Of a stretch of 44,959 nt of DNA, positions 3,252 to 18,825 are shown one piece after another. The notes below the pieces were generated by a model that saw only the letters and a list, made by a program, of their open reading frames with translations, had not been told where the DNA came from and did not search any database. A program made the translations under genes and the position numbers. The stretch's first letter is position 1. Every line of letters starts with the position of its first letter. This stretch comes from Clostridia bacterium (GTDB lineage: Bacteria; Bacillota; Clostridia; Oscillospirales; CAG-272), in contig JAFTXK010000078.1 of the NCBI GenBank assembly GCA_017461635.1, positions 1 through 44,959 on the forward strand. The letters are read 5' to 3'.

Positions 3252-3290
3252 AAAAAAAGATGTCGCCTACCGCGACATCTTTTATTTTTT
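3252..3290. terminator. Bidirectional rho-independent terminator ending the BCAA operon after ridA
   Basis: AAAAAAAGATGTCGC-ctacc-GCGACATCTTTTATTTTTT: a 9-bp stem flanked by an A-run and a T-run. Confidence 0.75.
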
Positions 3291-3663
3291 AAAGCTCTGC
3301 GATAACCTCGACCTCAACAAGTGCTCCCTTGGGGAGAGCCTTTGCCGCAACGCAGCTGCGGGCGGGCTTTGAGGTGAAATATTTGCCGTAGATCTCATTG
3401 AAAGCGGCAAAATCAGCGATATCAGCGAGGAAGCATGTGGTCTTGACAGCCTTATCCATGCTTGTTCCTGCCGCCGCGAGAACTGCTGTGAGATTCTTCA
3501 TGACCTGCTCGGTCTGTCCTGCTATGTCCTTTGCCACGATGTCGCCTACTGCGGGATCTATTGCGATCTGTCCGGATGTGAACACCATATTTCCTACGAC
3601 CATTGCCTGGGAATAGGGTCCGATGGCACTCGGTGCTTTATCTGTTGCTATAATTTTTGCCAT
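3289..3663 (-). CDS. ridA: RidA family reactive enamine/imine deaminase (YjgF/TdcF)
   Basis: MAKIIATDKAPSAIGPYSQAMVVGNMVFTSGQIAIDP... is a canonical RidA N-terminus. ATG 3663 is preceded by TTAGGAGAAAAATC. The track ORF has a spurious 7-aa extension. Confidence 0.92.
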   Translation of the reverse strand: MAKIIATDKAPSAIGPYSQAMVVGNMVFTSGQIAIDPAVGDIVAKDIAGQTEQVMKNLTAVLAAAGTSMDKAVKTTCFLADIADFAAFNEIYGKYFTSKPARSCVAAKALPKGALVEVEVIAEL

Positions 3664-3763
3664 GATTTTTCTCCTAATTAACAATAATTTAGTGAATAGT
3701 TAGCCCATTCCACATGAGATCCTTCGTCGAGACTCAGGATGACAGGGAAGTTTTTCTCATATT

Positions 3764-4957
3764 TTAAATCAGCTTAAAACCAAAATCGGTGAGAGCCTTC
3801 TTTATCTGCTCGATATGCTCGAAATTGCGTGTTTCAAGGATGATACGCAGATAGCACCCGTTGACATCCGAGCCCTCGTTTGCGCGTTCGTGGTGAACGG
3901 AGATTACATTGCCGCCGAGATCTGCGATGATGCGGGAAACATTCTTAAGCTGTCCGGGTTTATCCACCAGCTCTATCATGAGCTGAGCGCTTCTGCCCGA
4001 CATGAGCAGACCGCGCTTGATAACGCGTGAAAGGATGGTAACGTCAATATTACCGCCCGAAAGCAGACAAACGACCTTCTTGCCTGCGATATCGACCTTT
4101 CCGAACATTGCCGCCTCAACCGATACCGCGCCCGCGCCCTCTGTGACCAGCTTATGCTGTTCCATAAGTGCGAGGATAGCCGCGGAAATTTCGTCATCTG
4201 TAACGGTAACGATCTCGTCAACGTACTGACGGCAAAGCTCATATGTAAGATTGCCCGGACATTTCACCGCGATACCGTCTGCAATGGTGGAAACGCTTTG
4301 AAGCGTCTCGATCCTTCCGTCATGGAGCGAATTTGCCATAGAGGGCGCACCGCTTGCCTGAACGCCGTAGACCTTAACATTCGGATTCAGCATTTTCATT
4401 GTATATGCAACGCCGGAAATAAGTCCGCCGCCGCCGACGGGAACGATCACGGCATCGATATCCGCTATCTGTTCCGCAATTTCAAGGGCAATAGTACCCT
4501 GACCTGCAATAACGTCCTCATCATTGAAGGGATGGATAAAGGTATAGCCCATTTCATCACGAAGCTCCAGCGCCTTGTTGTATGCATCGTCATAAACGCC
4601 TTCAACGAGACAGACCTCTGCACCGTAACTTTTTGTTGCCTCAACCTTTGAAATTGGTGCGCCATCGGGCAGGCAGATAACTGCCTTTATGCCGTTTTTC
4701 TGTGCCGCAAGAGCAACGCCCTGAGCGTGGTTTCCCGCACTGCAGGCAATAACGCCGCGCGCCTTCTCCTCCTCGGAGAGCTTTGACATCTTATAGTATG
4801 CGCCTCTTACCTTAAATGAGCCCGTGATCTGCAGATTCTCTGTTTTAAGATATATCTCTGCATCTTTTCTCAGCTTCGGCGCATAGATCACATCTGTCTT
4901 TCTGACCACGTTCTTCAGCGCATAGCTGGCTTTATACACATTATCGAGTGTCATCAC
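3764..4957 (-). CDS. ilvA: Threonine ammonia-lyase (biosynthetic threonine dehydratase, short form with one C-terminal ACT-like domain)
   Basis: PLP-lysine motif ITGSFKVRGA, glycine loop GGGGLISG, ~397 aa. The start is GTG 4957 or ATG 4954, downstream of GAGGTG. Confidence 0.9.
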   Translation of the reverse strand: MMTLDNVYKASYALKNVVRKTDVIYAPKLRKDAEIYLKTENLQITGSFKVRGAYYKMSKLSEEEKARGVIACSAGNHAQGVALAAQKNGIKAVICLPDGAPISKVEATKSYGAEVCLVEGVYDDAYNKALELRDEMGYTFIHPFNDEDVIAGQGTIALEIAEQIADIDAVIVPVGGGGLISGVAYTMKMLNPNVKVYGVQASGAPSMANSLHDGRIETLQSVSTIADGIAVKCPGNLTYELCRQYVDEIVTVTDDEISAAILALMEQHKLVTEGAGAVSVEAAMFGKVDIAGKKVVCLLSGGNIDVTILSRVIKRGLLMSGRSAQLMIELVDKPGQLKNVSRIIADLGGNVISVHHERANEGSDVNGCYLRIILETRNFEHIEQIKKALTDFGFKLI

Positions 4958-4973
4958 TTGTTATCACCTCTTA

Positions 4974-6143
4974 TCAAATCAAACTTTCGATAAACTGCTC
5001 TGCGCATCTTGCGCTTCTGTAGCCACGGCTGAGGGCAAAAGCCTCTGCCTTCTGCTCGATCTCGGGAGTTACCTCAATTCCGTTGCGCTCCGCCAGCTCA
5101 TGGATGATCTCCAGATAGAGCTTCTTTTCGGGCTTTGCAAAAAGAATAGAAAGACCGAAGCGAGCGGAAAGAGAAAGATTTTCCTGCATAGTGTCATTTC
5201 TGTGAACATCATCACCGGTTCTGTCGGAAAAAGTCTCCTTTATGATATGCCTACGATTGCTTGTGGCATAAATGACCGCATTCTTAGCCTTTGCGCTTGC
5301 CGAGCCTTCAAGGGTCGCCTTCAGCATACTGAAATCATCATCTCCATTAAACGAAAGATCATCTATGAAAATGATAAATTTAAGAGGATTTCCGCTTATC
5401 TCACCCATCACTTTGGGGAGAAGGAGAAGCTGATTTTTTCTGATCTCAATAAGGCGAAGTCCCTCTTCAAAGAAGTTATTAGCAACGGCCTTGACTGTTG
5501 AGGATTTACCCGTTCCGGCGTCGCCGTAAAGCAGGATATTTGCCGCAGGCTTGCCCGCAAGGAACGCCTGAGTATTATTCATGACCTTCTGTCTTTCGTC
5601 CTTATAGCCGACGAACTTATCAAGAGTTATGCGGTCTGCGCTGGCGATGGGAACTATAGTTCCGTCATCTTCCACGTAGAACATTCCGTTTGAAGCAAAA
5701 ATGCCGTAGCCGTATTTGCCGATGCTGCCGAGCCTGCTTTCGTATTCGGCTTTTATATCTGCCTTGCCGTTTTCATATGAAGGGATAAACTCATCTGTTC
5801 CCATATCCTCGGCAAAATCTATGGCTGTAAGAGCGGCAAAATCAGTAAGCACATCAAGCTCATGCTCCACCGCCGCCCACATACACGGGCTGATCTTTTC
5901 CATATTTCCCACGGCTCTGACGTAAACATTCTCGTCCTCAAAAACCAGGCTTCTCACGCAATCTGTTAGAGACGCGCCCCCTTTATAGATCTCGGAAACG
6001 AAAGAGGCATATTTGCGAAGCTTTTCGTCGGTCTCCGCCGCCTTTGCGTATTCAAAAAATCTCTTATAGAGGGGCTTTTCAAGCATTCCGCCGAAAACGG
6101 AAAAGGAGCAAAGTCCCAAATAAATCTTATTTATCTTTGTCAT
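4974..6143 (-). CDS. DUF815-type AAA/P-loop ATPase of unknown function
   Basis: Intact Walker A LLYGDAGTGKSS and Walker B-like FIIFIDDLSF. The track start is TTG 6164, which overlaps the leuB stop. ATG 6143 (MTKINKIY...) is the first ATG. The RBS is weak for both. Confidence 0.7.
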   Translation of the reverse strand: MTKINKIYLGLCSFSVFGGMLEKPLYKRFFEYAKAAETDEKLRKYASFVSEIYKGGASLTDCVRSLVFEDENVYVRAVGNMEKISPCMWAAVEHELDVLTDFAALTAIDFAEDMGTDEFIPSYENGKADIKAEYESRLGSIGKYGYGIFASNGMFYVEDDGTIVPIASADRITLDKFVGYKDERQKVMNNTQAFLAGKPAANILLYGDAGTGKSSTVKAVANNFFEEGLRLIEIRKNQLLLLPKVMGEISGNPLKFIIFIDDLSFNGDDDFSMLKATLEGSASAKAKNAVIYATSNRRHIIKETFSDRTGDDVHRNDTMQENLSLSARFGLSILFAKPEKKLYLEIIHELAERNGIEVTPEIEQKAEAFALSRGYRSARCAEQFIESLI

Positions 6144-6150
6144 AATATAC

Positions 6151-7218
<1,068 letters not shown>

Positions 7219-7228
7219 GTTTTTCTCC

Positions 7229-7723
7229 TTATTTTATCTCGCCCTGCTTGATGGCTTCAACGAGGCCGCCGCAGTTAATAATCTTTTCGATAAATTCGGG
7301 AAAGGGCTTGGTATTGAAGCTTTCACCTGTGGTCTTATCGAAAATTATGCCTCTGTCAAGGTCTGCTTCAACCTCATCGCCCTCTCTGATCGCCTTTGCA
7401 GCTTCGGGACATTCGACGATGGCAAGACCGATATTTATAGAGTTGCGATAGAAGATTCTCGCGAAGCTCTCCGCGATAACGACGGATATTCCGCTCTCCT
7501 TTATGGCAATGGGAGCGTGCTCACGGGAAGAACCGCAGCCAAAATTCGCACCTGCAACCATAATGTCGCCTGCCTGAACCTTTTTGACAAAATCCTTATC
7601 GATATCCTCCATGCAGTGAGAAGCAAGCTCCTTTTTGTCAATGGTGTTAAGATATCTTGCGGGAATAATAACGTCTGTATCGACATTGTCACCGTATTTA
7701 AGCACTTTACCTGTAAAAATCAT
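7229..7723 (-). CDS. leuD: 3-isopropylmalate dehydratase small subunit
   Basis: 164 aa with ...[14 protein letters not shown]..., the aconitase swivel-domain motif. Adjacent to leuC. Confidence 0.9.
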
Positions 7724-7739
7724 TCTGCGTTTCCTCCTT

Positions 7740-8999
7740 TCAAATCTTTGCGGGGTCTGCTATCTTGCCTGCGATTGCACTTGCCGCCGCAACCGCGGGG
7801 CTGGCAAGATAAACTTCACTTGTTACATCGCCCATACGTCCAACGAAATTGCGATTTGTTGTTGCAACCGCTCTCTCGCCTGCGGCAAGAATTCCCATAT
7901 ATCCGCCAAGACAAGGACCGCAGGTAGGTGTTGAAACAACGCATCCTGCCTCAATGAAGATCTTCAGCAGTCCGTTTTCCATTGCCTTCAGATATATGTC
8001 CTGAGTCGCGGGAATGATGATGGCACGAACATTCTTTGCAACCTTCTTGCCCTTCAGTATCATTGCGGCTTCCTCAATATCCTTATAGTGACCGTTTGTG
8101 CAGGAGCCGATAACGACCTGGTCGATAACGACATCGCCAACCTCGTCGATTGTGCGTGTATTCTCGGGCAGATGAGGGAATGCAACGGTGGATTTGATAG
8201 CGGAAAGATCAATTTCGATAACCTCATCATATTCTGCATCCGGATCTGCAGTATATACCACGGGCTTTCTTGTGGAATGCTCTGCTATATATCTGAGAGC
8301 CTCCTCGTCAGCCTCGAAAATACCGTTCTTTGCGCCGGCTTCGATCGCCATATTGCAAATTGTAAGTCTGTCATAGATGGTGAGCGACTTAACGCCCTCG
8401 CCGACAAATTCCATAGACTTATAAAGTGCGCCGTCAACGCCTATCTTGCCGATTATATGTAGGATAACATCCTTACCCGAAATATGCTTATTCAGCTTAC
8501 CACGAAGCACAAATTTGATAGCGGAGGGGACCTTGAACCAAGCCTTGCCTGTTGCCATGCCTGCCGCCATGTCGGTTGAGCCGACACCCGTAGAGAATGC
8601 GCCGAGTGCGCCGTATGTACAGGTATGGGAATCCGCGCCTATAACAACATCACCTGCAACCACAAGACCCTTTTCGGGAAGCAGAGCATGCTCGATGCCC
8701 ATTCTTCCAACGTCATAGAAGTGAGTTACCTCCTTCTCGTTACAGAAATCACGGCACATCTTGCACTGCACAGCCGCCTTGATATCCTTATTGGGGGCAA
8801 AATGATCCATTACCATGGTCACCTTGTCCTTATCATAAACATTTTTTACGCCGATGTTATTAAACTCACGGATAGCAACAGGGGAAGTGATATCATTTCC
8901 CAGAACTCTGTCAAGCTCGCAAAGGATGAGCTGACCTGCCTCAACCTTGTCGAGACCTGCGTGCGCCGCAAGAATTTTTTGCGTCATTGTCATAGACAT
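7740..8999 (-). CDS. leuC: 3-isopropylmalate dehydratase large subunit
   Basis: 419 aa with aconitase-family Fe-S ligand regions ([25 protein letters not shown]). RBS GAAAGGAAA upstream. Confidence 0.9.
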
Positions 9000-9023
9000 A
9001 GCATTTATTTCCTTTCAAAATCA

Positions 9024-9701
9024 TTAAAAATTGCCTTTATATATATAAGATGCTGCTTTTTTCAGCTCGATCATATCACTATCGGAGACATTTTCGATCG
9101 AAACATCAATATTTGCGGGATCAATGCCAAATATTTTGGAAAAGATCGTCAGTGCCGCTATCGTACTGCCGCAAAGGTCGGGATGCAATTTGTCATCCTT
9201 ATATAATCTCACATCCGAATTTTCGGAAGCATACGAAATTGCCGCTCCCGCATAGCAAACGGGAATATCAAGCTCTTTGCCCATATCGGCATAAGCGGCA
9301 CGAAGCTTCATTTCCATTTCGGGCATATCTTTTCCGAACTTTATAAGCTCCGGATGACCGTCAGAGAGGGCACAGGGCTCATAGAGATATGTCTGTGCGC
9401 CGTTTGCCGTTATCATTTTATAAAGCTTTCGCACAGCATCTTGAAAAAGCCGGGGCTCGGTTATAGGATAGCGTCCATATTCCTGAATAATAACGATATC
9501 ATATTTGTTGTTCTCAAAAGCAGACTTTACCTTTGCACCGTATTCGTTATTTTCATCGGCAAACTGATAAAGATGATATCCGCCTTTTGTTATCGATGTA
9601 ACTTCCGCCTCTTTTCCGCAAGCCTTTGCAATGGCGGAAAAGATCACCTCGGGCATATCGTTATAATATGTTAAGCTGTTTCCGATAAATAAGATTTTCA
9701 T
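9024..9701 (-). CDS. SGNH/GDSL-like hydrolase family protein (DUF4886-like), function unknown
   Basis: N-terminal MKILFIGNSLTYY (block I Ser) and C-terminal DDKLHPD (DxxH block V). The start ATG is 2 nt after the ilvD stop and the stop is 24 nt before leuC, so it is embedded in the operon. Confidence 0.6.
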   Translation of the reverse strand: MKILFIGNSLTYYNDMPEVIFSAIAKACGKEAEVTSITKGGYHLYQFADENNEYGAKVKSAFENNKYDIVIIQEYGRYPITEPRLFQDAVRKLYKMITANGAQTYLYEPCALSDGHPELIKFGKDMPEMEMKLRAAYADMGKELDIPVCYAGAAISYASENSDVRLYKDDKLHPDLCGSTIAALTIFSKIFGIDPANIDVSIENVSDSDMIELKKAASYIYKGNF

Positions 9702-9703
9702 GA

Positions 9704-11365
9704 TTACTTATTTATGATAGCACCCTTGTCGGCTGAGCTTACCATTGCCGCATAGCGCTTCAGATAACCATTCAGGTTTTCCTTCTTCTTTATGGGCATT
9801 TCAGCCTTTCTCTTTGCTATTTCTTCGTCCGAAACCTTAAGAGAAATGCGGTATTCGGGGATATTGATGGAGATAATATCGCCGTCCTTTACATAAGCGA
9901 TAGTGCCGCCCGAGACAGCCTCAGGAGAAACATGACCGATAGAAGCACCGCGTGTTGCGCCGGAGAAACGACCGTCTGTAATAAGAGCCACATCCTTATC
10001 AAGACCCATACCTGCAATTGCCGAGGTGGGAGAGAGCATCTCTCTCATGCCGGGACCGCCCGAAGGACCTTCATAGCGGATAACAACAACGTCACCCTTT
10101 ACGATTTTTCCTGCGTAAATTGCCGAAATAGCCTCTTCCTCGCTCTCATAGACCTTTGCAGGACCTTCGTGAACGAGCATTTCGGGAGCAACTGCGCTTC
10201 TCTTAACAACACATCCGTCGGGAGCAAGATTACCCTTCAAAACCGCAATACCGCCTGTTTTTGTAAAGGCTGTTTCGGGTGTTCTGATGGTCTCGGGATC
10301 GCGGTTATAAGCATCAGCAATATTTTCAGCCATCGTCTTGCCTGTTACGGTCATAACAGAGGTATCAAGCAGACCGAGCTTGTCAATTTCACGGAGCACT
10401 GCGTAAACGCCGCCTGCTTCGTTAAGGTCTTCCATATATGTAGGACCTGCGGGCGCAAGATGGCAGAGGTTGGGAGTAACCTCGCTTATTCTGTTTACTT
10501 CTTCAAGATCAAATTCAACGCCGCATTCGTTTGCGATTGCGGGCAGATGAAGCATACTGTTTGTTGAGCATCCCAGAGCCATGTCCGCTGTGATTGCATT
10601 CTTTATTGCCGCCGCTGTCATGATGTCACGGGGACGGATATTCTTCTTTATCAGCTCCATAACCTGCATGCCTGCGTGCTTTGCCAGCTCTATTCTTGCG
10701 GAATAAACTGCAGGAATAGTGCCGTTTCCGCGCAGACCCATGCCGAGAACCTCAGTGAGACAGTTCATGGAGTTTGCTGTATACATACCCGAGCAAGATC
10801 CGCAGGTGGGGCAAGCCTTATTTTCAAATTCACAGAGCTTATCCTCGCCGATATTTCCTGCCTTATATGCGCCGACAGCCTCAAACATTGCCGAAAGACT
10901 TCTCTTCTTGCCGTCAACTCTGCCTGCCAGCATAGGACCGCCGCTGACGAAAACGGTTGGGATATTAAGTCTCGCCGCCGCCATAAGCAGACCCGGTACA
11001 TTCTTATCGCAGTTGGGGATCATAACAAGTCCGTCAAAGCCATGCGCCATGACCATTGCCTCTGTTGAATCGGCAATGAGGTCTCTTGTTACAAGTGAGT
11101 ACTTCATGCCGACATGACCCATTGCAATACCGTCGCAGACAGCGATCGCAGGGAACATGATAGGCGTTCCGCCTGCCATTGCAACACCCAGCTTAACGGC
11201 CTCGGTGATCTTATCCAGATTCATGTGTCCGGGTACTATTTCATTATACGAGCTGACAATACCGATGAGAGGTCTGTCCATTTCTTCCTTTGTAAGTCCG
11301 AGCGCCTTGTAGAGCGAGCGGTGAGGCGCATTGTGCGCGCCGTTTACTATCGTATCTTTGATCAT
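9704..11365 (-). CDS. ilvD: Dihydroxy-acid dehydratase
   Basis: [24 protein letters not shown]..., CDKNVPG and [15 protein letters not shown] motifs. The true start is ATG 11365, preceded by AAGGAAGGAA. The track ORF carries a 22-aa spurious N-extension. Confidence 0.95.
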
Positions 11366-11450
11366 AATTCTATTCCTTCCTTTGAAAAGTGCGTTATTGT
11401 TCACGGAAACGGGCGAGATAGCTCTCGTCAATTTCCACGGACAATAATTA

Positions 11451-11479
11451 TTGACATTTTTCGCCCCTTATGATATAAT
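11451..11479 (+). promoter_or_regulatory. SigmaA promoter of peptide (toxin-like) mRNA A
   Basis: TTGACA-17 nt-TATAAT with an extended -10 (TGaTATAAT). It points away from ilvD. Confidence 0.7.
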
Positions 11480-11587
11480 CTTACCCGGAAACCTCGGTTT
11501 CCCGGAGAGTACCATAAAACGGTGGCGGTTGCTTCCTTATTTTTGAGGAAGTGTAAATCTTTTTGCCTTCCTCACACGAGGGAGGTG

Positions 11588-11680
11588 ATGAAAGTGGATA
11601 ATGTTACGTGGAACGATCTTATTCAGATCGCATTTCTTGTCTTTGCCATTTTATCTTGTTTTTATAACAAAAAAAGATAA
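11588..11680 (+). CDS. Small hydrophobic peptide A, putative type I toxin (30 aa from the ATG; 28 aa if GTG 11594 is used)
   Basis: MKVDNVTWNDLIQIAFLVFAILSCFYNKKR: one predicted TM helix plus a basic C-terminal tail. GGAGG (11581-11585) lies 8 nt before GTG 11594. It is a paralog of peptide B and too short for the ORF track. Confidence 0.6.
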   Translation: MKVDNVTWNDLIQIAFLVFAILSCFYNKKR

Positions 11681-11752
11681 CCGCCCAGCTTCCAAAATGT
11701 GCGGTTATCTTTAATCGTAAACTTGGGAAGCAACCGTCACACGGTGCTCTCC
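11668..11752 (-). ncRNA. Putative antisense sRNA A (antitoxin-like), ~85 nt
   Basis: It starts ~7 nt after the consensus -10 (GGAGAGCACCGUGUGACGGUUGCUUCC...) and ends at hairpin AGATAACCGC/GCGGTTATCT (11675-11710) followed by UUUUUUU on the minus strand. It overlaps the last codons and 3' UTR of peptide A. Confidence 0.6.
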
Positions 11753-11758
11753 GTTACT

Positions 11759-11787
11759 ATTATAACCGACTTATCGTTTTTTGTCAA
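11759..11787 (-). promoter_or_regulatory. Consensus sigmaA promoter of antisense sRNA A
   Basis: Minus strand reads TTGACA-17 nt-TATAAT exactly, with an AT-rich upstream tract. Confidence 0.7.
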
Positions 11788-11863
11788 TAGTTTAATTATA
11801 AAAAACAGTACTTTTGCTAAGTTTTCATATTGTCTCACATATATGGCACTATTGACGACTGTA

Positions 11864-11892
11864 TTGACAAAAATCGTCAAATATGATATACT
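11864..11892 (+). promoter_or_regulatory. SigmaA promoter of peptide (toxin-like) mRNA B
   Basis: TTGACA-17 nt-TATACT with TGn extended -10. A 7-bp inverted repeat TTGACGA/TCGTCAA (11852-11858 / 11874-11880) brackets the -35. Confidence 0.65.
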
Positions 11893-12008
11893 TACCTTGG
11901 AGACCCGAAAGGCTCTCCCGGAGAGTGCCATATAACGGTGGCGGTTGCTTCCCTTAACGGGAACGCAGATTTTTTTTTGTTTGCCTTCCCGAGAGGGGAG
12001 GTGATGCT

Positions 12009-12098
12009 GTGTATTTAACACTTGAGCAGTTATTCCTGATTTCAGGTTTTATACTTGCCCTTCTTACTTACATTGACAATCATAACAAAAAGAAATAA
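12009..12098 (+). CDS. Small hydrophobic peptide B, putative type I toxin (29 aa, GTG start)
   Basis: (M)YLTLEQLFLISGFILALLTYIDNHNKKK. GGAGG (11997-12001) lies 7 nt before GTG 12009. It has the same architecture as peptide A (xTxxxL-hydrophobic helix-NKK[RK]). Confidence 0.6.
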   Translation: MYLTLEQLFLISGFILALLTYIDNHNKKK

Positions 12099-12172
12099 CC
12101 GCCTCTGCTTCGAAACGTAGGCGGTTAAATCTTTTAACTTAAGCGTGGAAGCAACCGTCATCGGTGCTCTCC
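12086..12172 (-). ncRNA. Putative antisense sRNA B (antitoxin-like), ~87 nt
   Basis: It starts after the consensus promoter (GGAGAGCACCGAUGACGGUUGCUUCC...) and ends at hairpin TAACCGCCT/AGGCGGTTA (12096-12127) followed by UUUCUUUUUGUU on the minus strand. It overlaps the peptide B stop codon and 3' UTR. Confidence 0.6.
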
Positions 12173-12178
12173 GTTACT

Positions 12179-12207
12179 ATTATAACCGACTTATCAATTC
12201 TTGTCAA
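12179..12207 (-). promoter_or_regulatory. Consensus sigmaA promoter of antisense sRNA B
   Basis: Minus strand TTGACA-17 nt-TATAAT. The block 12162-12222 is nearly identical to 11742-11802. Confidence 0.7.
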
Positions 12208-12243
12208 TAGTTTAATTATAAATTTTTTAACAATTCCGGCACA

Positions 12244-12272
12244 GGGGGCTTTTCTTTTATGAAAAAGCCCCC
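12244..12272. other. Strong stem-loop just downstream of the ilvC stop
   Basis: GGGGGCTTTT-cttttatga-AAAAGCCCCC (10-bp stem). No clean U-tract follows on either strand. It could be a partial terminator or stabiliser for ilvC (minus) and/or the end of mRNA B (plus). Confidence 0.4.
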
Positions 12273-12294
12273 GATGCGTTTGGTGTCAAATATA

Positions 12295-13344
<1,050 letters not shown>

Positions 13345-13357
13345 TTATTGTTTCTTT

Positions 13358-13384
13358 GCCTTCCCTGCAAGGGAAGGCTTTTTA
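13358..13384 (+). terminator. Stem-loop with a T-tract only on the + (non-coding) strand, between ilvN and ilvC
   Basis: GCCTTCCCT-gca-AGGGAAGGC followed by TTTTTA on the + strand. On the operon (minus) strand it is followed by AAAGAAAC, so it is not a terminator in the sense direction. Confidence 0.4.
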
Positions 13385-13876
13385 TTTGTTGAGAAGCGTA
13401 CCTGCGCCTCTTTCAAGGGCTACGATACCCGTGCGGCACATTTCAAGGATGCCGTAGGGCTCCATGAGCTTAACAAAAGCATCTATCTTTGTGGGGTCGC
13501 CCGTGATCTCGATGCAAAGTTCGGTTGCGGTATAGTCGATCACCTTTGCTCTATACACATTTGTCGCATCCAGCACATCCGAGCGTGTTTCACGGTTATT
13601 TTTAACCTTAATGAGCATCAGCTCGCGGGTAATCGGCGCATCGTCCAGAACCTCCACCTTTTTGACGTTATAGAGCTTCTTCATCTGATTTATCATCATC
13701 TGTCTCATATAATCGTCGCCGTCAAGTGTGATGGTGATACGGGAATAATCGGGGTTTTCCGTTTCGCCAACGGTCAAAGCGTCGATGTTGAAGCCGCGGC
13801 GGGTGAACATGCTGGTAACTCTTGTCAGAACGCCGGCTTTGTTATCAACATAGACCGCAATTACAAACTTACTCAT
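13382..13876 (-). CDS. ilvN: Acetolactate synthase small (regulatory) subunit
   Basis: MSKFVIAVYVDNKAGVLTRVTSMFTRRGFNIDALTVG... (ACT domain). ATG 13876 overlaps the ilvB stop (ATGAGTAA), with GGAGGGTG upstream. Confidence 0.9.
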   Translation of the reverse strand: MSKFVIAVYVDNKAGVLTRVTSMFTRRGFNIDALTVGETENPDYSRITITLDGDDYMRQMMINQMKKLYNVKKVEVLDDAPITRELMLIKVKNNRETRSDVLDATNVYRAKVIDYTATELCIEITGDPTKIDAFVKLMEPYGILEMCRTGIVALERGAGTLLNK

Positions 13877-15563
13877 TGCCTTCACCCTCCTTATTTACAA
13901 TAATATCATCAATAGAGCCGCCGGGAGGAAGCATGGGAAGAACAAATTCGTCCTTATCGATAAGAGTATCGATGATAACAGGTCTGCCTGCCGCTAGAGC
14001 ATCCTCAAATGCCTTTGCAAACTCGTCCGGAGTAGCCGCTCTTACGCCGATAGCGCCAAAAGCCTCTGCCAGCTTAACGAAATCGGTCTGTCTGCCGAGC
14101 ACGGTGTTTGAATATCTCTTTCCGAAGAAGAGTGTCTGCCACTGGCGAACCATTCCGAGAACGCCATTGTTCATAAGAACGATAACAACAGGGATATTAT
14201 AAGAAACCGCCGTTGCAACCTCATTGAGATTCATGCCGAAGCTTCCGTCGCCCGTGATAAGGACTGTAGGATCGCCGCTTCCGACCATTGCGCCGAGAGC
14301 CGCACCGAGACCGAAGCCCATTGTTCCAAGTCCGCCCGAGGAAACAAAGCGTCTTGGACCGTCAAAATCCGCATACTGCGCCGCCCACATCTGATGTTGT
14401 CCAACATCGGTTGCGATAACGGTATGCGCAGGCTTCTTTTCGTTGATAATATCAAGAACCTTTTTGGGCGTAAGCGCGCCCTTGGCTCTTTCCTCTGCCT
14501 TCTTTTCAAGGTCTGCCTCGCGAGCCTTCAGAGACCCAACAAGCTCGTTCCATTCGGGATGCTTTGCCCGAGGGAGAGCCGCCGCGATTCTCGTAAAGGA
14601 ATCGTAAACATCGGCAACGATACCGAGATCAACATTTATATTCTTATTTATCTCCGCAAAATCGGGATCAAGCTGAATTATCTTACTGTTCTTTGCAAAT
14701 TTTGCCGCATTTCCCGTGGCTCTGTCGCTGAAACGAACTCCAACCGCCAAGATAAGGTCGGAATCCTTTTGCGCCAAGGATGAAGCGAAATGACCGTGCA
14801 TACCCTGCATACCGAGGAAGCGTTCACAGCTATTTGGAATAGCGGAAAGTCCCATAAAGGAGCATCCGATATAAGCATCGATCTTTTCGGCAAGAGCCAT
14901 TATCTCCTTGCCCATTCCCAGACCTGCCGCGCCGCCGCCGATATAGATATAGGGGCGCTTTGCCTCCTTTATCATATCAACCGCCGCATCGATCTCGCTC
15001 TGCTCAGCCTTTGGCAGAGGGATCTTGGGAGCGACCGGCTGAATCTCAAAATCGTATTCCGCGATCTGAACATCCTTCGGAACATCGATAAGAACGGGGC
15101 CCGGTCTGCCGGATTTTGCAATGCTGAATGCCTCGCGGATGGTGTCTGCAAGATCAGCAATATTTTTAACTATGTAGTTATGCTTTGTGATTGGAAGCGT
15201 AACGCCTACGATATCTATCTCCTGGAAGCTGTCACGTCCGAGGAGAGGGCAGGGAACATTTCCCGTGATGGCAACCATCGGAACAGAATCAAGCATTGCT
15301 GTTGCGATACCTGTAACAAGATTTGTCGCACCGGGGCCCGAGGTTGCAATGCAAACGCCGACCTTGCCGGTAGCTCTCGAATAGCCGTCGGCGGCGTGTG
15401 CCGCACCCTGCTCGTGAGCTGTTAAAATGTGATTTATTCTGTCGCTGTTTTTATAGAGGGCGTCATAGATATTTAGTACCTGACCGCCCGGATAACCGAA
15501 AACATCGGTAACGCCCTGCTCAATGAGGGTGTTTACGATGATCTCCGCACCTGTCATTTTCAT
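13869..15563 (-). CDS. ilvB: Acetolactate synthase large (catalytic) subunit
   Basis: 564 aa ThDP enzyme: MTGAEIIVNTLIEQGVTDVFGYPGGQVLNIYDAL..., ...GDGSFGMNLNE... Confidence 0.93.
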   Translation of the reverse strand: MKMTGAEIIVNTLIEQGVTDVFGYPGGQVLNIYDALYKNSDRINHILTAHEQGAAHAADGYSRATGKVGVCIATSGPGATNLVTGIATAMLDSVPMVAITGNVPCPLLGRDSFQEIDIVGVTLPITKHNYIVKNIADLADTIREAFSIAKSGRPGPVLIDVPKDVQIAEYDFEIQPVAPKIPLPKAEQSEIDAAVDMIKEAKRPYIYIGGGAAGLGMGKEIMALAEKIDAYIGCSFMGLSAIPNSCERFLGMQGMHGHFASSLAQKDSDLILAVGVRFSDRATGNAAKFAKNSKIIQLDPDFAEINKNINVDLGIVADVYDSFTRIAAALPRAKHPEWNELVGSLKAREADLEKKAEERAKGALTPKKVLDIINEKKPAHTVIATDVGQHQMWAAQYADFDGPRRFVSSGGLGTMGFGLGAALGAMVGSGDPTVLITGDGSFGMNLNEVATAVSYNIPVVIVLMNNGVLGMVRQWQTLFFGKRYSNTVLGRQTDFVKLAEAFGAIGVRAATPDEFAKAFEDALAAGRPVIIDTLIDKDEFVLPMLPPGGSIDDIIVNKEGEGNE

Positions 15564-15587
15564 TGGAGTGTAGTCCTTTCTATGGAA

Positions 15588-17273
15588 TTATTTATGCGCG
15601 TCCATCAGTCTGTTGACTGCGCTCACAAGAGCTCTTACCGAGGCCTTGATGATATCATGGCTTATGCCCGTACCCCAGTAGATCTCATCATTATATTTAA
15701 TGCTGACATAGGATGCCGCCTTTGAGCTGGATTTGCCTTCAAGGGCGTGCTGTGTATAGCTTTCGAGGACATAATCAAGTCCTGTGAGAGAATGAATCGC
15801 GTTTGAAACCGCGTCAAGACGTCCGTTACCCATTTTGGTAAGCTCGATCTCCTTACCTGCCAGAACTATGTTGCAGTTTGCACGGATATCCTCGCCTACG
15901 TCCTCATATACCGCCTTCTTCACCTCGATATTTGTCGTCAGATTGACAAAGTCACGCATAAAGATGTCATAAACCTCGCTCGGCTGAAGCTCTCTGTGCT
16001 CATGGTCGGAAATGCTCTTGACATGATATCCGAATGCCTCGCGCATCTTGGGAGGAAGCACATGGCTGTACTGAGTTTCAAGGATATAACCGATGCCGCC
16101 CTTACCCGATTGGGAGTTGATGCGGATAACGTCTGCCTCATAAACCCTGCCGATATCGGCGGGATCGATGGGAAGATAGGGCACGTTCCAGATCTTTGCG
16201 TCCTTTTCCACCCGGTGCTTCATACCCTTTGCGATAGCGTCCTGGTGAGAACCGCTGAACGCCGCGAATACAAGCTGACCGCTGTAGGGCTGTCTCTCAT
16301 AGACGTGCATTCTGGTGACCTTTTCATAGACCTTTGTGATCTCGGGGAGATTTGAGAAATCAAGTCCGGGATCAACTCCCTGAGAATACATATTCAGTGC
16401 GAGAGTTACGATATCAACATTACCCGTTCTCTCGCCGTTGCCGAAGAGGGTTCCCTCAATTCTGTCGCCGCCTGCAAGCAGACCCATTTCGCTGTCCGCC
16501 ACCGCGCATCCTCTGTCGTTATGAGGATGGAGCGAAATTATAAGATTTTCTCTGTGCAGAAGATTCTTGCACATATATTCAACCTGATTTGCATAGACAT
16601 GAGGCATTGAATGTGAAACGGTTACGGGAAGGTTGATAATGACCTTATCCTCCGCCGTAGGCTCCCAAATCTTTATGACCTCGTTGCATATCTCAGCGGC
16701 ATATTCGGGCTCGGTGCCTGTAAAGCTCTCGGGAGAATATTCAAAGGTTATTTCACCGTCACCGTTTGCTCTTGCCTGCTCTCTATATTTTTTGCAAAGC
16801 TCAGCACCGAATTTTGCAATTTCGGTTATCTCGTCCTTGCTGCGTCTGAAAACCTGCTCTCTCTGCGCCACTGAGGTGGAATTATAGAGGTGAACCACGG
16901 CATGCTTTGCGCCTTTGATCGCCTCAAAGGTTTTTGCTATTATATGCTCTCTCGATTGGGTAAGAACCTGAATCGTAACATCATCGGGAATAAGATTCTG
17001 CTCGATGATTGTGCGGCAAAATTCGTATTCTGTTTCCGAAGCGGCAGGGAAGCCTACCTCGATCTCCTTAAATCCAACTTTAACGAGAAGCTTGAAAAAT
17101 TCCAGCTTTTCTTCGAGGCTCATGGGGACTATCAGCGCCTGATTGCCGTCGCGCAGGTCAACACTGCACCAATAGGGGGGCTTATCGATCTGTGTTTTCT
17201 TCATCCAGTCCATTGTCACTCCCTCGGGGGCGAAGAACTGGGGGGCATATTTGTTTACATTTTTCATTGTCAT
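15588..17273 (-). CDS. leuA: 2-isopropylmalate synthase (long LeuA type)
   Basis: 561 aa with ...WCSVDLRDGNQAL..., HPHNDRG and a C-terminal LeuA dimerisation/regulatory region. RBS AAGGAG lies 9 nt upstream. Confidence 0.93.
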   Translation of the reverse strand: MTMKNVNKYAPQFFAPEGVTMDWMKKTQIDKPPYWCSVDLRDGNQALIVPMSLEEKLEFFKLLVKVGFKEIEVGFPAASETEYEFCRTIIEQNLIPDDVTIQVLTQSREHIIAKTFEAIKGAKHAVVHLYNSTSVAQREQVFRRSKDEITEIAKFGAELCKKYREQARANGDGEITFEYSPESFTGTEPEYAAEICNEVIKIWEPTAEDKVIINLPVTVSHSMPHVYANQVEYMCKNLLHRENLIISLHPHNDRGCAVADSEMGLLAGGDRIEGTLFGNGERTGNVDIVTLALNMYSQGVDPGLDFSNLPEITKVYEKVTRMHVYERQPYSGQLVFAAFSGSHQDAIAKGMKHRVEKDAKIWNVPYLPIDPADIGRVYEADVIRINSQSGKGGIGYILETQYSHVLPPKMREAFGYHVKSISDHEHRELQPSEVYDIFMRDFVNLTTNIEVKKAVYEDVGEDIRANCNIVLAGKEIELTKMGNGRLDAVSNAIHSLTGLDYVLESYTQHALEGKSSSKAASYVSIKYNDEIYWGTGISHDIIKASVRALVSAVNRLMDAHK

Positions 17274-17314: not shown

Positions 17315-17585
17315 AAAAAAACAAAAAGCTCCTTTACGCAAACAGCCATAAACTTTTGCATAAAAGAGACGAAGATGTTTATATATTCTCCGCGGTACCA
17401 CTCTGCATTGACGGCTGTGCCGCCCACTTACTGTCCTGTCCACCAACAAGACTTCTCTGTAACGGGAGATCCCGCCCGAGTCTACTGAGCATTGCCTTAG
17501 CAATACCTTTCGGTCGGGGATTCAGGGAGGAGCAGGACAACACTCCGCATACCGCCTTACACCACCCGACGGCTCTCTTTGATGC
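17315..17585 (-). promoter_or_regulatory. T-box riboswitch leader (BCAA tRNA-responsive) controlling leuA-ilvBNC
   Basis: The minus strand has an AAAGAGAG stem I start and a T-box core CAGAGUGGUACCGCGGAG (plus 17391-17401 = CGCGGTACCAC). The terminator is CUCUUUUAUGCAAA/UUUGCGUAAAGGAG (14 bp, 17329-17368) followed by CUUUUUGUUUUUUU. Confidence 0.85.
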
Positions 17586-17622
17586 CTTGTGAACCTTTTT
17601 CCCATCATAATCTTTACATGTT

Positions 17623-17760: not shown

Positions 17761-18825
17761 TTATTTTATCTCGTAGATCCAGCCGTATGGGTCTTCTTTT
17801 TTACCCCACTGGATTCCCGTGAGGATATCATAAAGCTTTGAGGTAACCTCGCCGATCTCGCCGCCGTTTACTGTATATTGGGTGTCCTCATAGCAGAGAG
17901 TTCCGATGGGGGAAACAACAGCCGCAGTTCCGCAGCCCCAAGCCTCTTCAAGCTTGCCGCTCTTCATTGCGGCAACCAGCTCGTCAACCGAGAGAAGTCT
18001 TTCCTCAACCTCATATCCCATATCGCGGAGAACCTCGATACAGCTCTTTCTTGTGATACCGGGAAGGATAGAGCCTGTCAGCGCAGGTGTTACAACCTTG
18101 CCGCCGATCTTGAACATTACATTCATTGCCCCGACTTCCTCAATATATTTTCTCTCAACGCCGTCAAGCCAGAGAACCTGTGTATAGCCCTTCTTTGCGG
18201 CTCTTTCGCCTGCTCTTGTGGATGCCGCATAGTTACCGCCGCATTTAGCAAAGCCCGTACCGCCTCTTACAGCTCTTACGTCCTCACTCTCGATCATTAT
18301 CTTAACGGGGTTGATGCCCTCGGCATAGTAACTGCCGCTGGGGGATGCGATTATCATAAATGTTGCTCTCTTAACGCCGTGAACACCGAGATGCTCATCG
18401 TTGCCGAACATGAAAGGACGGAGATATAGAGAAGTTCCGAAGGATCTCGGTACCCATTTTTCTTCAAGCTTAACAAATACTGTCAGTGCCTCAAGAAAAT
18501 CCTGCTCGTCAAGGAGCGGCAGACACATGCGGTCAGCCGAGGTGTTCATTCTCTTGATATTTTCCATGGGGCGGAAAAGACGAACGCTTCCGTCCTCGCA
18601 TCTATAAGCCTTAAGACCTTCAAATATTTCCGCGCCGTAATGAAGCACTGTTGAGGCAGGATGCAGAGAGAGATTTCCGAAGGGAACTATTCTTGCATCG
18701 TGCCAACCCTTGCCTTCGTCATAGTCCATAAGGAACATATGATCGGAAAAGACCTTGCCGAAGCCGAGCTCATTTTCCGGGGGACATACTCTTGGATTTG
18801 TTGTTTTTGTGATTTTGATTTCCAT
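17761..18825 (-). CDS. ilvE: Branched-chain amino acid aminotransferase
   Basis: 354 aa class IV aminotransferase: ...FSDHMF..., ...HYGAEIFEGLKAY..., ...GGTGFAKCGGNYA... Confidence 0.93.
   Translation of the reverse strand: MEIKITKTTNPRVCPPENELGFGKVFSDHMFLMDYDEGKGWHDARIVPFGNLSLHPASTVLHYGAEIFEGLKAYRCEDGSVRLFRPMENIKRMNTSADRMCLPLLDEQDFLEALTVFVKLEEKWVPRSFGTSLYLRPFMFGNDEHLGVHGVKRATFMIIASPSGSYYAEGINPVKIMIESEDVRAVRGGTGFAKCGGNYAASTRAGERAAKKGYTQVLWLDGVERKYIEEVGAMNVMFKIGGKVVTPALTGSILPGITRKSCIEVLRDMGYEVEERLLSVDELVAAMKSGKLEEAWGCGTAAVVSPIGTLCYEDTQYTVNGGEIGEVTSKLYDILTGIQWGKKEDPYGWIYEIK

Follow-up and report, generated by a model that had tools for sequence, protein, structure and literature searches.

Par-like toxin/antisense-RNA cassettes in the ilvC-ilvD spacer of a T-box-controlled operon in a Clostridia bacterium: probable landing of selfish modules

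The bsrG/SR4 and txpA/RatA loci of Bacillus subtilis are Gram-positive type I toxin-antitoxin pairs with a 3'-overlapping antisense RNA. Chromosomal type I loci have been described as tandem, intergenic, and variable in copy number among strains (Fozo et al. 2010, PMC2887945). The Fst/RNA I-RNA II module par_EF0409 of Enterococcus faecalis is located between two co-directional mannitol phosphotransferase system operons in this single species; transcription of the upstream operon has been suggested to continue into the antitoxin, and the adaptive role is left unresolved there (PMC7472228; bioRxiv 10.1101/2022.02.04.479212). In Escherichia coli, the small RNA SraG is transcribed opposite to rpsO and pnp, two co-directional genes of one unit (PMC5029454). 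This study examined a 44,959-bp stretch of DNA from a Clostridia bacterium (hereafter, the window), which is an entire contig (C57) of a metagenome-assembled genome (MAG; G000, 2.13 Mb, 84.6% complete), and focused on the gap between ilvC and ilvD in a string of branched-chain amino acid (BCAA) biosynthesis genes. The gap contains two direct-repeat units of approximately 418 nt, each a plus-strand toxin/antisense small RNA (sRNA) cassette. Comparisons with related genomes and with copies at other loci suggest that the cassettes are probably selfish modules that recombine and came to lie in the operon's largest native spacer, and not a regulator dedicated to BCAA genes.

Each unit comprises a plus-strand promoter, a leader of approximately 110 nt, an open reading frame (ORF) with a GTG start, a hairpin, and a perfect 12/12 minus-strand promoter, and the chance expectation of perfect promoter sites in 929 nt is approximately 0.0003. 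A GGGAGG Shine-Dalgarno (SD) sequence stands 8 nt before the GTG start of toxin ORF 1, and the two predicted peptides are small and hydrophobic, measuring 28 and 29 aa and ending in KKR and KKK tails. In the minimum-energy fold, a conserved leader box (GGUUGCUUCC) pairs with the SD sequence, and the same anti-SD box is present in the 5' hairpin of the minus-strand RNA of approximately 86 nt. This sRNA folds as a 5' hairpin followed by a terminator hairpin, and the two-hairpin RNA is conserved in 15 aligned copies. Pairing between the sRNA 5' domain and the cognate ribosome-binding region was predicted at -8 to -30 kcal/mol in 40+ family members, as calculated without a shuffle control. The convergent promoters, the bidirectional terminator, and the second contact at the ribosome-binding site are the layout of the par (RNA I/RNA II) type (PMC7472228).

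We searched the peptides against Pfam and the window against Rfam. Peptide 2 matched the Hol_Tox model PF16935 by a narrow margin (24.0 bits, with a gathering score of 23.3), peptide 1 had no Pfam match in the scan, and neither peptide matched the Fst model (PF13955) at E<=1. The Rfam scan of the window yielded no antitoxin or sRNA family at the gathering score, and its matches in the gap were at chance level. Both peptide ORFs appear to be under purifying selection because ORF 2 differs from its orthologue in the congener G012 by 8 synonymous and 0 nonsynonymous changes, and ORF 1 encodes the same peptide as in the congener G002, with 2 synonymous and 0 nonsynonymous changes. On this evidence the cassettes are predicted to be par-like type I toxin/antisense-sRNA modules. 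Each would function from promoter to promoter: a strong promoter would drive the leader with its SD-pairing box and then a 28-29-aa membrane peptide with a Lys/Arg tail, and the convergent sRNA, whose 5' hairpin bears the anti-SD box, would have a bidirectional terminator in common with the peptide gene. The Lys/Arg codons in the toxin tails (AAA AAA AGA at 11664-11680 and AAA AAG AAA at 12084-12098) are complementary to the U-tracts of the sRNA terminators, and the same stretch thereby serves both functions. Because they are complementary to toxin Lys codons, these U-tracts probably cannot easily be weakened.

The locus resembles par_EF0409 in its convergent toxin mRNA and sRNA, its common bidirectional terminator, the extra 5' complementarity at the ribosome-binding site, and its lineage-specific position wedged between co-directional metabolic genes. 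It differs in that the toxin is Hol_Tox-like instead of Fst, that two modules stand in tandem, and that the cassettes lie inside a single, apparently ancestral operon, which leaves the downstream genes without their own promoter. Like bsrG/SR4 and txpA/RatA, the cassettes form Gram-positive type I pairs with a 3'-overlapping antisense RNA; however, the B. subtilis pairs are prophage-borne, with unrelated peptides, and their sRNAs are not known to carry a duplicated cis anti-SD box. As in the ibs-sib, ldr-rdl, and zor-orz loci of E. coli, each small, hydrophobic peptide has a polar or charged C-terminus, and 0, 1, or 2 copies occupy the same intergenic region among close relatives (PMC2887945), although those loci belong to another phylum, to other toxin families, and to another sRNA geometry and are not described as splitting a biosynthetic operon. 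SraG likewise opposes a pair of same-direction genes of a single unit (PMC5029454) but is a conserved resident instead of an indel and is not a toxin-antitoxin module. By analogy, our data fit the known behavior of chromosomal type I loci.

To compare the same site in relatives, we located ilvD in 23 of 41 genomes. In 15 of the 16 relatives with enough upstream contig, ilvC and ilvD were adjacent; the exception (G033) had no ilvC there. In the other genera checked, the ilvC-ilvD gap measured approximately 10-290 nt, and no cassette was seen where the gap was read. The results revealed that congeners carry 0, 1, or 2 cassettes at exactly this site. A first-pass annotation of the window had proposed such a synteny comparison, and the two genes are indeed adjacent without cassettes in three congeners (G013, G010, and G016; gap 86-151 nt). 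Three others (G002, G003, and G012; gap 495-524 nt) carry one cassette with the same junctions and orientation as in the window, and in G001, where the contigs break inside a cassette abutting hairpin A and ilvC, at least one is present. Two native hairpins, A beside ilvC and B in the ilvD leader, bracket the insertion, a point that the earlier annotation had missed. In the cassette-free G016, both hairpins are kept and are only approximately 10 nt apart, and because of this retention the cassettes are interpreted as inserted exactly between them. In G014 (L038, C188:4300-4696), hairpin B is followed by unrelated DNA with an open-ended ORF pointing toward ilvD; the spacer between ilvC and ilvD may serve more generally as a landing site.

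In the ilvD tree, the cassette-bearing G000 and G002 form one group and the empty G013 and G010 another, and the empty G016 weakly groups with G012, G001, and G003. Cassette presence is not nested on this tree, and at least two gain or loss events are needed. The single cassettes are mosaics of the two in the window. In G012, the promoter and leader of cassette 1 continue up to the start codon and are followed by the ORF of cassette 2. In G002 and G003, a cassette-2-like promoter precedes the leader and ORF of cassette 1, which are followed by a cassette-2-like distal flank. A simple deletion from two cassettes to one, considered for all single-cassette genomes, fits G012 only, the mosaics of G002 and G003 being more complex.

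Copies of the cassette are also numerous at other loci. A covariance model of the sRNA (R1) matched in 88 of 401 family genomes, spread over 38 of 97 genera, and a single genome had as many as 8 copies. The named records with the sRNA were Clostridia/Oscillospiraceae MAGs, mostly from the ruminant gut. The antitoxin sRNA, as judged by these model matches, would be a large and widespread gut-Clostridia family absent from Rfam. A 16-mer scan of genome contigs returned mostly chance matches in unrelated phyla and approximately a dozen real loci in Clostridia MAGs. No cassette copy was matched and no vector was identified in the phage and plasmid collections.

To determine how the cassettes are oriented, we fetched 60 further loci, located the sRNAs, and grouped the loci with common flanking proteins, which yielded 64 independent groups. 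The sRNA ran in the same direction as its upstream gene in 14 of 27 groups and as its downstream gene in 20 of 33 (p = 0.30). Both neighbors were called in 26 groups, including 19 with an intact peptide; 10 had the arrangement of the window, 6 had the opposite one with the toxin in sense, 5 were convergent, and 5 were divergent. The flank classes (62% co-directional, 19% convergent, and 19% divergent) match a genome baseline of 58%, 17%, and 26% for gaps of at least 80 nt. The orientation of the cassette to neighboring genes is random across the 64 independent loci. The rule that the toxin is always antisense to both neighbors, which the first 6-9 loci of the genus had presented, was a small-sample and relatedness effect according to the 64-locus sample. 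Among approximately 80 loci outside the genus, no cassette had ilv or leu neighbors.

Several individual copies illustrate the variation of the family. The MAG of the window contains an intact third cassette (C165:1350-1850; peptide MFVTWELLFLFAGFILALLTYIDNHNKKK) with a direct repeat of approximately 22 nt, AATTCGTAATCGTTTGGG(G)ATTT, on both sides, and this repeat may be the duplication footprint of an insertion or recombination. A decayed cassette of the same genome (C97:17750-17900, minus strand) has the toxin promoter joined directly to the last 15 or so peptide codons. The toxin leader and N-terminus of this copy are lost, its sRNA with promoter and terminator is intact (R1, 66 bits), and it looks like an orphan antitoxin. 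At L054 (G003:C65:26200-28650), one gene stands between two cassettes, in the second of which the same RNA scaffold is combined with another toxin (MVTYEALFAFAMVLIALAALFIDRK). This suggests that toxins can be exchanged as modules.

We consider the selfish-insertion reading probable because copy number at the site is 0, 1, or 2, copies occur outside ilv contexts, orientation is random, and no ilv/leu association was found outside the genus. A dedicated BCAA regulator would be expected to have a conserved ilv/leu association across lineages; no such association was found, and the site is empty in three congeners and in the other genera checked. The first-pass annotation had offered two interpretations, namely inverse coupling of toxin expression to tRNA charging and selfish cassettes at an operon break. 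The latter gained from the copy number, the other contexts, and the random orientation, and the former found no support. The same annotation had named mobility and a lack of connection to the ilv context as observations that would undo a regulatory role, and the variable copy number and non-ilv copies are of this kind. Under the selfish-insertion reading, the gap would represent the native spacer between ilvC and ilvD in a BCAA operon that was ancestrally continuous and under T-box control, and two cassettes would have been inserted into this spacer between hairpins A and B. Such cassettes would move, decay, and recombine with no specific tie to BCAA genes, and the antisense orientation observed here would be one among several roughly equally frequent outcomes.

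Some observations weigh against this reading. Among the nine resolved congeners, five retain a cassette here, always in one orientation, and the cassette DNA of G000 and G002 is 95% identical, whereas the synonymous divergence (dS) of ilvD between them is 0.57. Such conservation could reflect constraint on the RNAs or a recent exchange; a locally useful role of the cassette, retained by selection, seems rather improbable to us. In addition, neither transposition machinery nor a target-site duplication was identified, and the genes in the orientation survey were called by our own codon-usage log-odds heuristic, which was trained on G000 and reproduces the operon.

The coordinates of the operon and of the elements in the gap are presented in Table 1. 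Gene identities in the window were obtained from NCBIfam and Pfam scans.

Table 1. Features of the BCAA gene string and of the ilvC-ilvD gap in the window
Feature	Coordinates	Strand	Remarks
ilvE	17761-18825	-	NCBIfam
leuA-ilvBNC promoter, TTGACA-17-TAAAAT	17651-17623	-	sequence reading; directly upstream of T-box
T-box leader	17362-17617	-	Rfam RF00230 match
Proximal genes leuA, ilvB, ilvN, ilvC	12295-17273	-	
leuA	15588-17273	-	NCBIfam equivalog
ilvB	13869-15563	-	NCBIfam equivalog
ilvN	13382-13885	-	NCBIfam equivalog
ilvC	12295-13311	-	NCBIfam equivalog
ilvC-ilvD gap	11366-12294		929 nt
Hairpin A	12239-12277		just 3' of ilvC stop; inverted repeat I9, -23.7 kcal/mol
sRNA 2 promoter	12207-12179	-	12/12 consensus
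Antisense sRNA 2	12087-12174	-	covariance model R1 83.4 bits; fold
Terminator T2, bidirectional	12088-12135		minus strand: UUUCUUUUUGUU after stem; -21.8 kcal/mol
Toxin ORF 2	12009-12098	+	GTG start, 29 aa, MYLTLEQLFLISGFILALLTYIDNHNKKK
Toxin 2 promoter	11864-11892	+	11/12, TG-extended
sRNA 1 promoter	11787-11759	-	12/12; nearest credible promoter aimed at ilvD
Antisense sRNA 1	11669-11754	-	covariance model R1 89.9 bits; fold
Terminator T1, bidirectional	11673-11712		minus strand: 12-bp stem then U7; -17.7 kcal/mol
Toxin ORF 1	11594-11680	+	GTG start, 28 aa, MDNVTWNDLIQIAFLVFAILSCFYNKKR
5' untranslated region box 1 (anti-SD, CGGTGGCGGTTGCTTCC)	11500-11536	+	direct repeat D2; twin at 11916-11952
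Toxin 1 promoter	11451-11479	+	12/12, TG-extended
Hairpin B, ~52-nt stem-loop in ilvD leader	11395-11446	-	-19.7 kcal/mol
Distal unit: ilvD, DUF4886 gene, leuC, leuD, leuB, DUF815 gene, ilvA, ridA	3289-11365	-	
ilvD	9704-11365	-	NCBIfam/Pfam scans; ATG at 11365
ridA	3289-3684	-	

The minus strand carries the whole leuA-ilvBNC and ilvD-leuCDB-ilvA-ridA string, identified by NCBIfam. The T-box leader scored 81.5 bits against RF00230 (E 1.7e-17), which is under the gathering score of 93; the alignment spans the full model, contains the AGAGA, AGUA, and GGUGGUACCGCG boxes, and has a CUC (Leu) codon at the specifier position, which is the probable specifier. Within the distal unit, the spacers from ilvD onward measure 2, 24, 16, 10, -14, 16, and 79 nt. 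A DUF4886/SGNH-like (GDSL-like) gene (9024-9701, minus strand) and a DUF815 AAA ATPase gene (4974-6164, minus strand) are tightly packed within the BCAA string, with 2-24 nt or an overlap on their sides.

To identify how ilvD is transcribed, we scanned the gap for promoters. Neither the strict nor the relaxed scan found a minus-strand site between T1 and ilvD that scored above 8/12. The sole 9/12 minus-strand site (11388-11361) has a -10 element that includes the ilvD start codon; on this strand of the gap, only the two sRNA promoters, both of perfect consensus, are credible. These scans bear out the description in the first-pass annotation of minus-strand flanks and a gap with no ilvD promoter besides those of the sRNAs; its deductions that an ilvD transcript must either originate at the cassettes or traverse them, becoming antisense to the peptide mRNAs, and that the plus-strand toxin promoters fire head-on into the operon also hold in their structural logic and geometry. 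The eight distal genes would lack room for their own promoters because the spacers downstream of ilvD are 2 to 79 nt. With these tight spacers and no ilvD promoter found, all eight are predicted to depend on transcription that starts in or crosses the gap.

Polymerases moving from ilvC to ilvD would encounter, in this order, hairpin A, the sRNA 2 promoter, sRNA 2, T2, the antisense of toxin 2, the sRNA 1 promoter, sRNA 1, T1, the antisense of toxin 1, hairpin B, the SD sequence, and the ilvD ATG. Both T1 and T2 are strong and oriented as operon transcription, a direction that the earlier annotation had overlooked, and for this reason they are predicted to form a polar barrier to operon read-through. 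As a side effect of the insertion, ilvD-ridA would be transcribed only by polymerases that pass at least T1, whether initiated at an sRNA promoter or at that of the T-box; in the latter case, hairpin A and T2 would also have to be passed. The resulting ilvD-ridA transcripts would be antisense to the toxin mRNAs. The ratio of nonsynonymous to synonymous substitution rates (dN/dS) of ilvD is 0.04-0.06 in cassette-bearing lineages, compared with 0.03-0.04 in cassette-free ones. Because ilvD is single-copy and has a dN/dS of 0.04-0.06, the distal genes are probably functional and presumably expressed despite the barrier.

The two native hairpins differ from the terminators in lacking a U-tract, hairpin A on the minus (operon) strand. 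Hairpin A has a GC-rich stem and is kept in cassette-free and cassette-bearing congeners. The ilv-leu mRNA of B. subtilis is processed into more stable species, and by analogy hairpin A may be a 3' stabilizer of the proximal mRNA. Hairpin B lies approximately 25 nt upstream of the ilvD ribosome-binding site and is conserved across the genus, with compensatory changes in 7 of its 23 pairs across 7 congeners. This conservation with covariation suggests that it is a functional leader element; a leader stabilizer and a protein-binding site are possibilities.

How the distal genes are reached by polymerase can be explained in more than one way. It is possible, although we hold it only tentatively, that ilvD-ridA is transcribed mainly by read-through from the sRNA promoters, chiefly that of sRNA 1, and has largely escaped T-box control. 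No strong co-directional promoter is present besides those of the sRNAs, sRNA 1 transcripts need to pass T1 only, and ilvD is still under purifying selection; however, T1, whose 12-bp stem is followed by U7, is a terminator of the textbook kind, and the cassette-free ancestor evidently relied on operon read-through. That the operon has been rewired, with the eight distal BCAA genes made mainly as read-through extensions of the antitoxin sRNA, is in our estimation unlikely. If it were true, antitoxin promoter activity, terminator leakiness, and BCAA enzyme supply would be mechanistically linked, T-box read-through would double as added antisense cover for the toxins, and this linkage would explain cassette retention at the site in at least five species.

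A regulatory coupling, in which T-box read-through under Leu limitation produces antisense RNA over the toxins, the toxin promoters damp the operon, and toxin expression is inversely tied to operon transcription, is also improbable. The geometry that it requires is real, a cassette is retained at the site in at least five species, and a comparable link between par_EF0409 and the mannitol operons has been the subject of published speculation (PMC7472228). Nevertheless, close relatives have an empty site, orientation and context are random throughout the family, and little T-box-driven antisense RNA would be expected at cassette 1, which is preceded by hairpin A, T2, and T1. The corresponding link in E. 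faecalis could not be demonstrated (bioRxiv 10.1101/2022.02.04.479212).

We similarly doubt that ilvD has an unrecognized promoter or processing site close to hairpin B or on the strand antisense to toxin ORF 1. In favor are the conservation of hairpin B, with its covariation, and the presence of weak 8/12 sites, for example at 11643-11616. However, no site exceeds 8/12, the cassette-free relatives have no consensus promoter in their 86-151 nt, and the 11643 site is within toxin ORF 1, an ORF absent from G012. A misjoin of the MAG contig through the repeated cassettes is very unlikely: repeats trouble assemblers and the contigs of G001, G014, and G006 break near or at this spot, but the independent assemblies of G002, G003, and G012 each run from ilvC through the cassette to ilvD within a single contig, and their junctions are the same.

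The locus has the value of a clean natural experiment, with close relatives that have 0, 1, or 2 modules at the same nucleotide position of a T-box-controlled biosynthetic operon and with every module contributing a strong terminator and a consensus promoter oriented as the operon. Another outcome of the analysis is a widespread family of antitoxin sRNAs that Rfam lacks (88/401 family genomes). The series of relatives could show how selfish, RNA-regulated modules are tolerated in essential operons and whether operon regulation splits, and the same operon-splitting question applies to par_EF0409 in E. faecalis.

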